64,000 nucleotides of DNA, from assembly GCA_025677605.1 (NCBI GenBank), contig GCA_025677605.1_4110.1, one strand, 5' to 3'. This DNA comes from a phage. This document shows positions 10,935 to 15,723 of the stretch, piece after piece. The position numbers were made by a program, and so were the translations under genes. Under the pieces are notes generated by a model, which was not told the DNA's origin, did no database searches, and saw only the letters and a program-made list of their open reading frames with translations. Every line of letters starts with the position of its first letter. The stretch's first letter is position 1.

Positions 10935-13106
10935 TTAACTATTGCGTTCACCTTGTGTATTTTCAGAAATTGTTCTTAAGTAATTATTTGTCTGATTTGT
11001 TGCTGCGAGTGATTGTTCACTCATTTCTGCTAGACGTTTAAAAATTTCTTTGATCTCTTCTGAACTCATGTCATTATTTATAGTTCCGTTTTGTGGCGTT
11101 ACCAGAGATTTTATATCACGATCTGGTTCTGGTGGGAATGGTGCTTCACCAGGTTTCCATGCGGATTTATCATAATGTTTACGAGTTAATTCCATCATAG
11201 GTGGTGTATTTGGCATTACTGTAGTCTGGACGTTTTTAGGTGGTTCATAGCCCAAGACTCGATATGCATTATCTACGTTAAATGGTCTAGGTGGTGTATA
11301 TAATTTAGAAGATTTCCATTTTTGGAAGTCAAGTGTTTTTTCTTCTACAAATTTTGTGAAATCGTCTACTGAATTACCAATAGAATCCCAGAAAGATGTA
11401 GCTTTCTCTTCTATTTTCTTTTTAGGTTCTTCTTGTTTTTCAGATTTATCATCTGAACCAAACCATCCTTTTACTTTATCCCATAACTTTCCAGGTAAAT
11501 CCATGAGATTCTTCATGAAGTCATCGAATGCTTTTGAAACTTGAGTGTATGTATCACCAAATATATCTGCACCTAATCCTTCAAGCCACAATACAAATTC
11601 ATTACCGACACGATCAACATAAGCAACTGCATCCTTGAATATTGGAACTAACCCAAATCCATCTTTAGCCAATTCCCAAATAAATCCCCATGCACTATCG
11701 GTACGATCTGCAATTGCTGTCAAATAATCAACAACATTATTTTGAACATCAGCATACATTTTATTGAATGGAGCAACAAATTCAGTACTGACCCATCTGT
11801 TCAATCTATCAGTAAATTCTGCGATTTTATCTGCTGGTCGATTTTTGTCAGCATTAATTGCAGCTTCCATATCTAACATTTGCTTAGCAAATGCGGCAGC
11901 GGTGAAGTTTTGACTTCGTTGCATATCTTCCATATCTTTTTCAACGCGTTTTCTGTTTTTCTTCACCCACTGATATTGTGCTTCACGTATAGCTTTTGCA
12001 TCGGTTACACCAGACTTAACCATGTTCTCACCAAGGTCAGCGAATTCGCTAATCATTGGAGATAATAAATCATCAGGAACACCACCAATTGATATTCTGT
12101 GGCTAATCAATCTTAGGAAATCAGTACCCATATCCCCCATACCACCTGCCGCTTCGGTAAGTGCTTTAGTGGTTAATGTTGCGGTTTCTTCTGATAGTCC
12201 CACCCAGTTGTTTAGTGTAGTTTTTAGTATTCTTGCATCAAATGATTTATCAAGTGATTGTGTCTTTTTAAGTAATTCATCAATTGACATACCCATTGTC
12301 TTACTAAAAGTAGACATAGTTTTAATTAACTCTTGGGTACTTTGTGCTTGGTTTATATTCCTTACTAGTTCTGCACCACCAAATTGTTTTTGAATTTTGA
12401 TGTTACGTGCTGCTAAATCTGATAAAGTTTTTTGTGACATACCATATAGGCCAAGTTTATCTTGGGCATTTTGAACTACACCTAACAATTTACCAAATTC
12501 CTTAACGCCATCTCCATACGAACCATCCAATTGTGCAATAACATCACTATGAGTTGATATTACTTCACTGAATAGATCCATAGACATTAACGCTGAACCT
12601 GAACCTTTTAGCAAAGAGCCATAACCTTCAGCAAGAGAAACACCCGCACTGTTGACTCTGTTGTACATTTCAAGCTGGGCGTTCATTACGTTATATACTG
12701 CCATCCCTACATCAGCAACCATTTTAAATGCTGATGCTGCCATTCCTACAGGACCGGGAATCATAGAAAGAGAGCCAGCTACGGATGATGCACTCATACC
12801 CATTGAGTTAATGACAGTACTGACATTCGCTGAAGTACTCATCATTGTTTTACCAACGTTTGTCATTTCGCTGGACATTGCTCTGAACATTTTACCCATA
12901 GAGGATGAATTACCACGAGAACCGCGTCCACCACCACTTGGTCCAGGTGAATCGCCAGGTGATGGGTTACCACCACCATTATTTTTCTTTTTATCATTCT
13001 TTAAACTTTCTGCTAACAATTCACGTATAGCTGAAAGACCATCTACGGTATCATTAGATTTATTCACTATCTGTTGTAGTAAGTAATCACTGTTGTTTAC
13101 AGCCAT
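10935..13106 (-). CDS. Gly/Ser/Met-rich virion protein (tape-measure-like or ejection protein?)
   Basis: 723 aa; N-terminal GGGNPSPGDSPGPSGGGRGSRG then Met/Ala/Ser-rich helical segments; ends 16 nt before the portal start. Confidence 0.35.
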   Translation of the reverse strand: MAVNNSDYLLQQIVNKSNDTVDGLSAIRELLAESLKNDKKKNNGGGNPSPGDSPGPSGGGRGSRGNSSSMGKMFRAMSSEMTNVGKTMMSTSANVSTVINSMGMSASSVAGSLSMIPGPVGMAASAFKMVADVGMAVYNVMNAQLEMYNRVNSAGVSLAEGYGSLLKGSGSALMSMDLFSEVISTHSDVIAQLDGSYGDGVKEFGKLLGVVQNAQDKLGLYGMSQKTLSDLAARNIKIQKQFGGAELVRNINQAQSTQELIKTMSTFSKTMGMSIDELLKKTQSLDKSFDARILKTTLNNWVGLSEETATLTTKALTEAAGGMGDMGTDFLRLISHRISIGGVPDDLLSPMISEFADLGENMVKSGVTDAKAIREAQYQWVKKNRKRVEKDMEDMQRSQNFTAAAFAKQMLDMEAAINADKNRPADKIAEFTDRLNRWVSTEFVAPFNKMYADVQNNVVDYLTAIADRTDSAWGFIWELAKDGFGLVPIFKDAVAYVDRVGNEFVLWLEGLGADIFGDTYTQVSKAFDDFMKNLMDLPGKLWDKVKGWFGSDDKSEKQEEPKKKIEEKATSFWDSIGNSVDDFTKFVEEKTLDFQKWKSSKLYTPPRPFNVDNAYRVLGYEPPKNVQTTVMPNTPPMMELTRKHYDKSAWKPGEAPFPPEPDRDIKSLVTPQNGTINNDMSSEEIKEIFKRLAEMSEQSLAATNQTNNYLRTISENTQGERNS

Positions 13107-13213: not shown

Positions 13214-13756
13214 TTAGTATCGTGGTTCCAGTACTGCACTATAGGTTCGTTTTGGTGAACCGTCACTAACATTTTTATTACTGAATATGATAGAGTTTGT
13301 TTCTCTATTAACATACAATGTACCTTCAAGTTTTACTGTCTTTTGAACACCGCCGACAGTATAAGTGAAGTCGTTAATGTTGTAATAAACATCATATCCA
13401 GATGCAGTACTTCCAATATAACTCCATGATTCATATGTCTGACCCATCAGTACTTCATCACCGTTAACAGTGAATTGGATGAATGTCCATTTTAAATGTT
13501 CCTCGTTAGGATCTTCGTTATACAGTTTACCTTTGTAGCTAACAATTTGTGTTGGTAATTCACGTTTAGTTAACTGCTCTTTGTACTCTGATTCTTTAGA
13601 TGTGGATGTTTCGCTTTTCGGAACAATCATACCGATTACTAACATAACAACCATAAAGATACCAAAGGCTTGGAACAAACGTTTGATTGTTGTCTTTATC
13701 ATAAAATATTCCTCTTGGGTGATTTTGAAGTTTTGAACATACATAAATACTTTCAT
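13214..13756 (-). CDS. Membrane-anchored hypothetical protein (start probably Met at ~13702)
   Basis: N-terminal hydrophobic helix LFQAFGIFMVVMLVIGMIVP then a soluble beta-rich domain. Confidence 0.4.
   Translation of the reverse strand: MKVFMYVQNFKITQEEYFMIKTTIKRLFQAFGIFMVVMLVIGMIVPKSETSTSKESEYKEQLTKRELPTQIVSYKGKLYNEDPNEEHLKWTFIQFTVNGDEVLMGQTYESWSYIGSTASGYDVYYNINDFTYTVGGVQKTVKLEGTLYVNRETNSIIFSNKNVSDGSPKRTYSAVLEPRY
13743..13750 (+). promoter_or_regulatory. Candidate late promoter (CATAAATA) for gene 13762..14649
   Basis: About 30 nt upstream of the probable start ATGTCAATG (13780) with GGAG RBS. Confidence 0.35.
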
Positions 13757-13761
13757 AATTA

Positions 13762-14649
13762 TTGCATGGAGAAAGTATTATGTCAATGAACCCGTTAGCA
13801 AAATACACAAAAATCGAAGAAATTAGTACTAAACTCGTCACTAACAACATTTTCCAGTACAAAGATGGTGTATTGGGGAGCAAAGGCATTAAATGTGGTG
13901 TCTGTGCTCGTAGTGCTCGTGACGAAATGATGCTCAATACACCTGATATGTTACTCAATGGTAGTGCAGTGTCATCTGTTATCGAAAACTGTGTACCAAA
14001 CATTCTAAACGCAGATGAGCTTTTTGTCAATGATGTTGAGCAAATTCTTATTGCTATCAAGTTAGCATCCAAAGAAACCAGTTATGATGTCAATGTCGTA
14101 TGTCCATCATGTTCCAAAGAAGGCCGTTTTGAACGTGATCTTTCTTATCTATTGGAAACGGCAGAATCTTTTACTGAAATTCCTAGTATTGATCTTAATA
14201 ATGGTTTGTCTCTTCAGTTCAGACCACTTACTTGGAAAGAATATTCAGAGTTTTCTCAACGTATGTTAGCTGAACAGCAAAAAACTAAGTATCTTGAAAG
14301 TACTATTGATATTTCTGAAGATGATAAAATTAAAATGTTTTCTGAAGTATTTGAAAACATGGCACAACTAAACTTTGATATGATTGCTGGAGTTATTGAT
14401 AAGGTAATTACTCCTGATGGTGATGAAGTATCAGATAAGAAATTCATAAGTGAATGGTTAGGTACTCAATCAAAAGAAGTGATCAAGCAAATCAGAGAGA
14501 AAATGGATGAAGTACTAGAGATTGGTGTATCGCATACAATGGAAGTTGAATGTATTGAATGTCAGCATCAATGGGAACTTACTGGATTAAAGTATGACCC
14601 TACTCATTTTTTCGATCTCAGCTTCTCTTCTCAAACCCAGAAGAAATAA
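13762..14649 (+). CDS. Hypothetical zinc-ribbon protein (probable start 13780, MSMNP); possible C-terminal extension by -1 frameshift
   Basis: Three CxxC pairs (CGVCARS, CPSCSK, CIECQH); slippery T_TTT_TTC near the 3' end (see findings). Confidence 0.45.
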   Translation: MHGESIMSMNPLAKYTKIEEISTKLVTNNIFQYKDGVLGSKGIKCGVCARSARDEMMLNTPDMLLNGSAVSSVIENCVPNILNADELFVNDVEQILIAIKLASKETSYDVNVVCPSCSKEGRFERDLSYLLETAESFTEIPSIDLNNGLSLQFRPLTWKEYSEFSQRMLAEQQKTKYLESTIDISEDDKIKMFSEVFENMAQLNFDMIAGVIDKVITPDGDEVSDKKFISEWLGTQSKEVIKQIREKMDEVLEIGVSHTMEVECIECQHQWELTGLKYDPTHFFDLSFSSQTQKK

Positions 14650-14841
14650 AAGAACTTCTGGATGATATGGAGTTGAATAAATCAGATATTAAAAATGCCC
14701 TTATGGATGCTGCTGTTTATGTAGATAATGTCGATTATGCAACTCTACTTAATATGCCAGTAAATGACAGAGATATGCTTATTAAGGCATACAATAAGAA
14801 AGTAAAGAAGATGAACGAGAAGCACTAATACTCATAAGAAG

Positions 14842-14866
14842 CCAGCACATTGTTGCTGGTTTTTTT
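14842..14866 (+). terminator. Rho-independent terminator
   Basis: CCAGCA-cattgt-TGCTGG hairpin followed by TTTTTTTGTTTTTGTTTTTTGGGTTTTTT. Confidence 0.6.
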
Positions 14867-15123
14867 GTTTTTGTTTTTTGGGTTTTTTACTTACAAAGTA
14901 GATGAAAGAAATTATGATCTTAAAAGATTTATTCTTGAAGGAATTCATTTGATTTATATTGAACTCATCTAACTCATTTCATTCGTTAGCTGAAGAATAT
15001 TCGTTAACTACGTTAACTCATATTCATTTTAATATAATTATAAAGAACTTTAAATGATTTAATACTTGACGGGATTTGTTGAGGATATTTCATCCCCCCG
15101 CAGGGGAATGAAGATAATAAAAA

Positions 15124-15148
15124 AGAGACAATTAAGTCTCTGTTTCTT
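15124..15148 (+). terminator. Hairpin with T-rich tail (terminator-like) inside the ORF-free region
   Basis: AGAGAC-aattaa-GTCTCT then GTTTCTT; an adjacent hairpin TCATCCCCCC-gca-GGGGAATGA lies at ~15090-15112. Confidence 0.3.
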
Positions 15149-15683
15149 GACGCTGATGGCATCGGTATTATTGTATTGCGAATTTCTTAAAATTTAAACG
15201 TAATTATATTGTAAAAATATTAAGAACGAAAGCGGGTTGCTCTGTTTCTCTCTATCGCAGTCATGTGCAACGGTCGTCAGTCTTAAACATCCTGACACTC
15301 ACCTGAAAGTCTATACAATCAAACTTCAGGCTGTTTAATGAAATGAATCATCAAACTCCCTTAGCAAATCTGGTAAGGTGCGATCCTTATACATCTATCG
15401 AGGAACTCTCTGTATGCTTATCGGAGTTCTTTATTGAGCCGTGTCGCCGTGAGGGGTTCATAATATGCCCACATCTAACGGGTTTCTTTTGCTCATCGCA
15501 CTGTTGAACTGCTCATCTACCCTCTACATTTTCGAGTGGATTAGGTTCTAATTTATATGCATTTCTGCATTCAACAGGATTGTCAGTACTACATGAAACA
15601 TTATAGCACGCAATTTAAAAGTGTCTCAAAATATCTAATCTTTTTTATAAAAAAGTACTTAAAAATTTCTTAGGAATGTATTT

Positions 15684-15691
15684 CATAAATA
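15684..15691 (+). promoter_or_regulatory. Candidate late promoter (CATAAATA) for endonuclease VII-like gene
   Basis: About 32 nt upstream of ATG 15724. Confidence 0.4.
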
Positions 15692-15723
15692 TTTCATAAA
15701 CTAACTTAGATCTAAGGCACATT

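Follow-up and report, generated by a model that had tools for sequence, protein, structure and literature searches.

A conserved slippery heptamer and a putative -1 frameshift joining gp26-like and gp51-like baseplate hub factors in a jumbo phage and its relatives

Can one phage gene supply two proteins that bacteriophage T4 makes from two, or is the second reading frame at the end of such a gene a small gene of its own, or even a sequencing error? This question is raised by a gene at positions 13780-14649 (+ strand) of a 64,000-nucleotide (nt) stretch of phage DNA (GenBank assembly GCA_025677605.1, contig GCA_025677605.1_4110.1), hereafter the window, which shares 99.3% identity with Escherichia phage A4, an Asteriusvirus and jumbo myovirus of 355 kb. 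The gene codes for a baseplate-hub assembly chaperone of the gp26 type (289 amino acids (aa), 32.9 kDa), matching both the Pfam family PF12322 (T4_baseplate; E 2.4e-24, 86.7 bits for a cut-off of 24.5) and PHROG 150, “baseplate hub” (3.9e-34); its ATG is preceded at 8 nt by GGAGA, and the longest open reading frame (ORF) begins at TTG 13762. Judging from comparative sequence analysis, this gene is very probably decoded in two ways by means of a programmed -1 frameshift, giving a gp26-like and a gp51-like product.

The zero-frame ORF ends at TAA 14647-14649. The -1 frame, which has a stop 5 codons upstream and is hence open from 14598, runs on to TAA 14826-14828. Within the overlap of the two frames lies the slippery heptamer T_TTT_TTC (14607-14613, + strand) in the X_XXY_YYZ register, the zero-frame codons being CAT TTT TTC at 14605-14613; tRNA-Phe reads both the P-site codon, UUU, and the A-site codon, UUC. 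The -1-frame extension (14613-14828, + strand) comprises 71 codons and a stop, begins with CGA (Arg) at 14613, reaches about 60 codons beyond the zero-frame stop and reads RSQLLFSNPEEIKELLDDMELNK...NEKH. Joining 13780-14613 to 14613-14825 gives a predicted trans-frame product of 349 aa (39.9 kDa), with the predicted junction peptides YDPTHFFR and SQLLFSNPEEIK, the corresponding zero-frame peptide being YDPTHFFDLSFSSQTQK. The coordinates of both frames, the register of the heptamer and an extension of some 71 aa had been proposed in an initial annotation made from the letters of the window, and all were found correct on re-reading.

The heptamer by itself is not beyond chance, and its significance comes from its conservation in homologues. 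TTTTTTC occurs 18 times on the two strands of the window, for an expectation of 26.5 +/- 5.2, and at least 18 copies were obtained in 97 of 100 shuffles. This mild under-representation in an AT-rich window fits a general avoidance of slippery runs.

We looked at the same junction in other phages. A tblastn search with the junction and the extension as query found 81 phage records; in the Asteriusvirus records among them, the match is divided between two frames. The junctions of seven phages were read individually, namely 121Q, UE-S1 (76% nucleotide identity), RaK2, CBB, XaC1, Munch, and Hallingskeid. An in-register TTTTTTC is kept in each, followed by the -1 continuation FFR..LL...PEEI...LLNMP..RD..V..YNKK, and the zero-frame stop comes 2-13 codons past the heptamer at a position that differs among phages; with the non-redundant contexts described below included, this distance is 1-13 codons. 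The layout is not restricted to this long form of gp26. Indeed, short-form gp26 genes have the same arrangement in the jumbo phage Atu_ph07, Cronobacter phage LPCS28 (Straboviridae), Synechococcus phage S-WAM1 (Kyanoviridae), and Agrobacterium phage OLIVR5 (Pootjesviridae), the small ORF of the last bearing the annotation “baseplate hub assembly catalyst”. The in-register heptamer and the two-frame layout are therefore present in all 10 cultured relatives that we tabulated (RaK2, CBB, XaC1, Munch, 121Q, Hallingskeid, Atu_ph07, S-WAM1, OLIVR5, and LPCS28), and the exceptions to the slippery layout are T4 and Aeromonas phage avDM7.

An alignment-driven scan of IMG/VR for the long form of gp26 gave 83 loci with 26-77% protein identity, and an in-register heptamer was found at the C-terminal xFF motif in every one of them. 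It is mostly T_TTT_TTC, with a few T_TTT_TTT or A_AAT_TTT and one G_TTT_TTT, and lies 10-43 nt 5' of the zero-frame stop. Past that stop, the -1 frame stays open for 58-89 codons (83/83) and the +1 frame typically for 2-17. Among the non-redundant cyanophage-type IMG/VR loci, T_TTT_TTC is present in 44 of 44, with a -1 extension of 61-65 codons (one being ended by the contig edge); across all the relatives examined, the extension measures 57-93 codons. Comparing orthologues for a fused ORF or a conserved two-frame arrangement had been suggested in the initial annotation, which also named the loss of the downstream frame in related genomes as evidence against a frameshift. What we found is a two-frame layout in all homologues examined outside the T4 type (T4 and avDM7), with protein-level conservation of the downstream frame down to 26-30% identity of the upstream gene, so that the programmed -1 frameshift put forward there as the leading reading is supported by the comparative evidence.

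Conservation of the heptamer also holds at synonymous sites. In 97 non-redundant contexts, the codon before the Phe-Phe pair encodes nine different residues (N, S, H, T, D, G, R, Y, and A), yet it ends in T in 96 of them, and the first Phe codon is UUU in all 97. Since the heptamer is conserved at positions where the protein would tolerate other letters, only the slippery motif explains these T-ending codons.

The -1 frame, for its part, bears the mark of coding selection in a stretch that has no start codon. Across 64 non-redundant contexts, it opens a median of 5 codons 5' of the heptamer, and its first ATG, GTG, or TTG comes a median of 16.5 codons into the extension (range -20 to +64); in 49 of the 64, more than 5 codons of the extension come before this first possible start. 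In the window, that start is ATG 14667, codon 19 of the extension. Substitutions between the window and 121Q in the extension are distributed 19/9/34 over -1 codon positions 1/2/3, and in the 18 codons 5' of ATG 14667 the entropy among 15 RaK2-like phages is 0.80/0.52/1.20 by -1 codon position. This periodicity in 18 codons lacking a start argues that the stretch is translated in the -1 frame.

A single-frame version of the gene was not encountered outside the T4-type gp51. A search with the trans-frame product returned 53 homologous protein clusters, all of 276-297 aa, none of them a fused ORF of about 350 aa. The extension, run in a full HMMER scan against 1.84 billion cluster representatives, matches only ORFs of 51-73 aa, none fused, and a word-index search with the extension alone returned a single cluster and no fused ORF. 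Taken together, the comparative results exclude a homopolymer error and exclude the 53-codon ORF that begins at ATG 14667 as the main product.

In the mechanism that we propose, most ribosomes would read CAU UUU UUC in frame and terminate at 14647-14649, giving the 289-aa, 32.9-kDa gp26-like protein. Some ribosomes would slip back by one base on U_UUU_UUC, the two tRNA-Phe re-pairing from UUU-UUC to UUU-UUU, then read CGA (Arg) at 14613 as the first of 71 codons and stop at 14826-14828, giving the 349-aa, 39.9-kDa protein, to which a gp51-like C-terminal domain of three helices would be added. Slippage is taken to be ribosomal. Heptamers of the form H_HH.U_UU.Y are among the most efficient in E. 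coli, and on U_UU.U_UU.C slippage exceeds 0.1% when no stimulator is present (PMC4066793). In most phages of the T4 superfamily other than those of the T4 type, gp26-like and gp51-like factors would in this way come from one gene; in T4, the two products would be hard-wired as the adjacent paralogous genes 26 and 51.

What, then, is the added domain? The extension is predicted to form three helices (pLDDT, the predicted local distance difference test score, 79) and matches PHROG 18291 (1.9e-28); searches against known families gave only chance-level hits (Pfam on single sequences and on 38 members, NCBIfam, and a PDB profile search). The trans-frame protein was modelled as two separate parts, the zero-frame protein and the extension; the AlphaFold2 model of the former (pLDDT 84, predicted template modelling score 0.81) has a disordered zero-frame tail after the Phe-Phe pair (residues 280-289). 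For neither part is there a solved relative.

An answer came from T4, through a relationship that the first reading of the locus had not seen. In T4 gp51, the PF12322 match covers residues 1-201 (E 3.9e-52), and about 48 C-terminal residues lie beyond it; its precomputed Pfam assignment is PF12322 plus PF28602. T4 gp26 matches PF12322 as well, and the two are paralogues (BLASTP E 2e-6). The zero-frame product of our gene is, like T4 gp26, a PF12322 protein, and the trans-frame product shares the architecture of T4 gp51, PF12322 followed by a short helical C-terminal domain, together with the motifs F-x-LL-x-NP(D/E)EI and Y..L...M.P..(E/D)R.....I.K. Profile-profile comparison with hhalign aligned the cyanophage extension with the gp51 C-terminus (probability 93%, E 2.6e-7), the cyanophage trans-frame product with the gp51 family (97.4%, E 1.2e-11), the jumbo with the cyanophage trans-frame products (96%, E 3.6e-9), and the jumbo trans-frame product with gp51 (E 5.8e-4). 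Each of the four is colinear across the slip site; for example, FFRSQLLFSNPEEI pairs with DVFKLLVNPDEI, and VDYATLLNMPVNDRDMLIKAYNKK pairs with a 25-residue stretch. That the extension is the counterpart of the gp51 C-terminal domain is well supported by these alignments for the cyanophages and probable for the jumbo clade to which the window belongs.

The arrangement in the genomes can be compared in the same way. A cyanophage-type extension directly follows gp26 in 564 phage records found by tblastn, covering phages of Synechococcus, Prochlorococcus, Pelagibacter, and Sinorhizobium, nt-1-like Vibrio phages, Stenotrophomonas phage DLP6, Pseudomonas phage pf16, and others, and most annotations enter it as a small “gp51” or “baseplate hub assembly catalyst” in its own right (see also PMC5349666). 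All of 95 jumbo-phage records contain one PF12322-type locus apiece, which fits one gene supplying both products. T4 differs in having separate, divergently transcribed paralogous genes 26 and 51; the jumbo protein, moreover, is about 70 aa longer at its N-terminus than its T4 counterpart, and helix 1 of the jumbo extension is longer. T4 gp26 ends ...KEFFELL* on the non-slippery G_TTC_TTT and is directly followed by gene 25, an arrangement shared by avDM7.

Two observations on the T4 locus may be added here. In NC_000866 (7405-9229), genes 26 and 51 are adjacent and divergently transcribed, and gene 25 starts in the -1 frame at a TAATG overlapping the gene 26 stop. Because gene 25 of T4 comes after gene 26 and in its -1 frame, we considered whether the extension could be a relic of gp25 and rejected the idea: the extension aligns to gp51 and not to gp25, and the T4-type gp25 is a full protein of 132 aa with its own start.

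T4 gp26 and gp51 are hub assembly chaperones; gp51, called the hub assembly catalyst, is essential although its function is not known, and it does not form part of the particle (PMC3004832). By analogy, the two products of the gene studied here may be non-virion factors for assembling the central hub around the tape-measure protein. In the published virion mass-spectrometry table of phage CBB, neither CBB_250 nor CBB_249 is listed (PMC5259590).

One has to keep in mind a number of results that count against a ribosomal frameshift into a gp51-like domain. Taken alone, the jumbo extension gives in hhalign a P of only 7.4e-4 against the gp51 C-terminus and of 0.016 against the cyanophage extension; jumbo extensions rank at the top among 3497 decoy ORFs, but with hidden Markov model E values of only 0.025-0.7, and in Foldseek the gp51 match of the extension comes only at rank 15 (E 2.1). 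We found no mass spectrometry, western blot, or reporter data on the trans-frame product. The T6 run could also allow transcriptional slippage, which the sequence alone does not distinguish from slippage of the ribosome, and in some clades an ATG lies near the zero-frame stop (TAATG in 121Q; an ATG 4 codons past the slip site in cyanophages), so that termination-reinitiation could also give a free small peptide. The 64 nt from the heptamer on fold like their shuffles (minimum free energy -9.2 kcal/mol, z = +0.18), no consensus structure came out of RNAalifold for 15 RaK2-like sequences, and no Shine-Dalgarno (SD)-like element was seen upstream of the heptamer in this phage and its clade. A candidate weak stem, CUUCU (14622-14626) with AGAAG (14639-14643), both on the + strand, starts 8 nt past the heptamer; its pairing is possible in 82.7% of cells among the same 15 sequences and shows no covariation, because its 5' arm is invariant, encoding a conserved Leu-Leu.

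The initial annotation had drawn this hairpin as TCTTCT with AGAAGA, about 8 nt past the heptamer, as a possible stimulator. The two hexamers do exist (UCUUCU at 14626-14631 and AGAAGA at 14639-14644) and represent an alternative register of the weak stem; they begin 12 nt past the heptamer, not about 8. A role as stimulator found no support in this phage, since the fold does not surpass its shuffles, a consensus structure did not emerge, and the arms do not covary. In the minimum-free-energy fold itself, the hairpin (14631-14665, + strand; CCAGAAG 14637-14643 with CUUCUGG 14655-14661) begins 17-23 nt past the heptamer; it is not above chance and is too distant for a classical stimulator.

Family-wide, the 60 nt past the heptamer form the most structured window, with a mean z of -0.88 and 25% of values below -2, versus 3-10% in eight control windows. 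Strong hairpins stand 1-8 nt 3' of the heptamer in several distant jumbo clades (loci L061, L056, L055, L060, L040, and others), reaching -30 kcal/mol and z -5.1 in L061 and z -5.9 in L056, and their arm sequences and 3'-arm positions are clade-specific, which suggests a frameshift stimulator that evolved repeatedly. The cyanophage-type loci L105-L184 carry GAAGGA or GAGGGA 8-10 nt 5' of T_TTT_TTC, provided by conserved ..LEGLA.FF codons; this element could be an SD-like upstream stimulator, as in dnaX, a role that is inseparable from the constraint on the protein.

Of the other ways to account for the locus, the one that fares best also gives the same two products: RNA polymerase would add one U in the T6 run, and a subset of the mRNAs would then carry a single frame. 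The site is a homopolymer of 6 T, and no convincing ribosomal stimulator was found in this clade, both of which speak for it. The run, however, has only 6 T, and in some clades 5 (A_AAT_TTT C). T runs of 5-6 are shorter than those that usually give efficient transcriptional slippage in bacteria. The run, moreover, always starts at codon position 3 and is followed by C or T in the X_XXY_YYZ pattern, which is needed for tandem tRNA slippage and not for polymerase slippage, and the strong hairpins 1-8 nt 3' of the heptamer in distant clades point the same way. We favour ribosomal over transcriptional slippage on account of the strict conservation of the register and of the clades with no more than five T, and consider the latter unlikely.

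A second possibility is that the 53-codon ORF from ATG 14667, annotated as A4_1 in the A4 record (where the chaperone gene is A4_2), is an independent small gene translated by weak initiation or reinitiation, next to which the heptamer would be incidental. Separate small ORFs are indeed annotated in GenBank records, ATG 14667 sits 17 nt past the zero-frame stop, and the 121Q stop and start that overlap, or the cyanophage ATG close to the slip site, would suit such an arrangement. The position of the first possible start is nevertheless not conserved (from -20 to +64 codons about the slip site), and gene callers choose differing starts in different phages; the 18 codons 5' of ATG 14667 are conserved at the protein level (LL..PEEI) with -1 periodicity, the heptamer is kept at synonymous sites, and the homologous domain of T4 forms one polypeptide with a gp26-like domain. 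As the main product, then, a 53-codon gene of this kind, which had been listed as an alternative in the initial annotation, is very unlikely. As for the other alternative listed there, an assembly or homopolymer error hiding a true T5 or T7 and a simple 349-codon ORF, such runs are error-prone on some sequencing platforms, but the identical T6C in the independent GenBank assembly of A4, the two-frame layout in 81 phage records, 83 IMG/VR loci, and 44 cyanophage-type loci, and the lack of a fused ORF in the 53 protein clusters or the cluster representatives leave it next to no credit.

Having kept the programmed -1 frameshift as our preferred reading, we compared it with known systems. Frameshifting in tail assembly chaperone genes of the lambda G/GT type was reportedly described by Xu, Hendrix, and Duda in 2004. 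The likeness to it is close in logic: lambda G/GT also involves a -1 slip on X_XXY_YYZ near the 3' end of a tail-assembly gene, gives a short and a C-terminally extended product with a common N-terminal part, and is conserved as an arrangement despite sequence divergence. P2 E/E+E' and Mu gp41/42 belong to the same comparison (reviewed in PMC5009743). The likeness extends to T4 gp51, needed for assembly and absent from the particle, the presence of gp26 in the hub being disputed. Membership of the tail-assembly-chaperone family, by contrast, fails on position and on sequence and fold. A pair of the lambda type would be expected immediately before the tape-measure gene and in its orientation, whereas the gene studied here is divergent from a putative tape-measure gene, with a 180-aa ORF between them, and does not lie between the tube and tape-measure genes; similarity in sequence or fold to known chaperone families was not seen either. 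The T4 homologues of the gp26-type products act in hub assembly.

The slip site itself is of a classical kind. Tandem-slippage heptamers are likewise found in E. coli dnaX and in insertion sequences (IS) of the IS3 and IS1 families, U_UU.U_UU.C being used in some IS elements (PMC4066793). In dnaX, frameshifting yields a truncated product and relies on an upstream SD and a strong 3' hairpin, whereas here it would yield an extended product, with no demonstrable stimulator in the clade. What is unusual is the breadth of taxonomic reach, and such a frameshift would explain the 26/51 gene pair of T4. None of 12 annotated records that we inspected has a joined coding sequence (CDS), and we found no description of a gp26/gp51 frameshift in the literature, subscription-only papers aside.

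Frameshifting of the G-T type has been described as conserved in long-tailed phages “except T4” (PMC5009743). Our results suggest that a -1 frameshift does operate across the greater part of the T4 superfamily, in a tail/baseplate assembly gene of a different protein family from G/GT, and the reach would extend to hundreds of sequenced cyanophages, vibriophages, rhizobiophages, and jumbo phages. If this is true, T4 gp51 would be the hard-wired equivalent of a gene 26 frameshift product, which would give a rationale for a protein described as essential but without a known function (PMC3004832), the stoichiometry of the two products would be a possible determinant of hub assembly, and hundreds of GenBank records with a “gp26” followed by a tiny “gp51” or “hypothetical protein” would have to be re-annotated with a joined CDS. 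The natural U_UUU_UUC sites, some having strong hairpins and others lacking them, would also be material for a study of frameshift efficiency.

A bolder version of the proposal can be formulated, which we regard as tentative and would not yet bet on: the -1 frameshift would be ancestral to the whole T4 superfamily (including jumbo RaK2/Atu_ph07-like phages, cyanophages, pelagiphages, KVP40-like vibriophages, and Pootjesviridae) and would be the counterpart, long missing, of the conserved lambda G/GT frameshift; gp26 would play the part of G and the gp26-51 fusion that of GT, acting on the tape-measure protein and the hub, and T4 would be an exception in appearance only, having swapped recoding for gene duplication.

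The surroundings of the gene are as follows. Upstream, on the - strand and divergent from the chaperone gene, a 723-aa virion protein is encoded at 10935-13106. It matches PHROG 14121, “virion structural protein” (7e-246); for its RaK2 homologue, the annotation gives similarity to a tape-measure protein, and its CBB homologue, CBB_251, is represented by 29 peptides in virion mass spectrometry (PMC5259590). We regard it as a putative tail tape measure protein, although it has no Pfam hit and no detectable similarity to T4 gp29. Between it and the gp26 gene, the 180-aa ORF (13214-13756, - strand) has a hydrophobic, transmembrane-like segment; it is present in A4 (A4_3), is not found at that position in 121Q, UE-S1, and RaK2, has no Pfam or PHROG hit, and looks like a lineage-specific insertion.

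On the other side, 8 nt past the -1-frame stop, a hairpin with 4 G-C pairs among its 12 and a T-run behind it (14836-14865, + strand) resembles an intrinsic terminator and closes the transcription unit, in agreement with the terminator placed just beyond the -1 stop in the initial annotation; the equivalent site of UE-S1 is annotated as a terminator. It is followed by about 850 nt of AT-rich sequence (14870-15720) with no ORF longer than 55 aa, no Rfam match, and no direct repeats, at a place where UE-S1 has a repeat_region; downstream of the locus come an endonuclease VII gene, at the end of this AT-rich stretch, and a gp46-like gene.

Several gp26 homologues in GenBank and JGI records are apparently mis-annotated, and zinc-ribbon CxxC pairs may explain some of the labels. 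In one record, Escherichia phage CMSTMSU (MH494197.1), the match to the body of the gp26 homologue is broken into two, as in no other Asteriusvirus record, which may reflect an indel or an assembly error within the gene.

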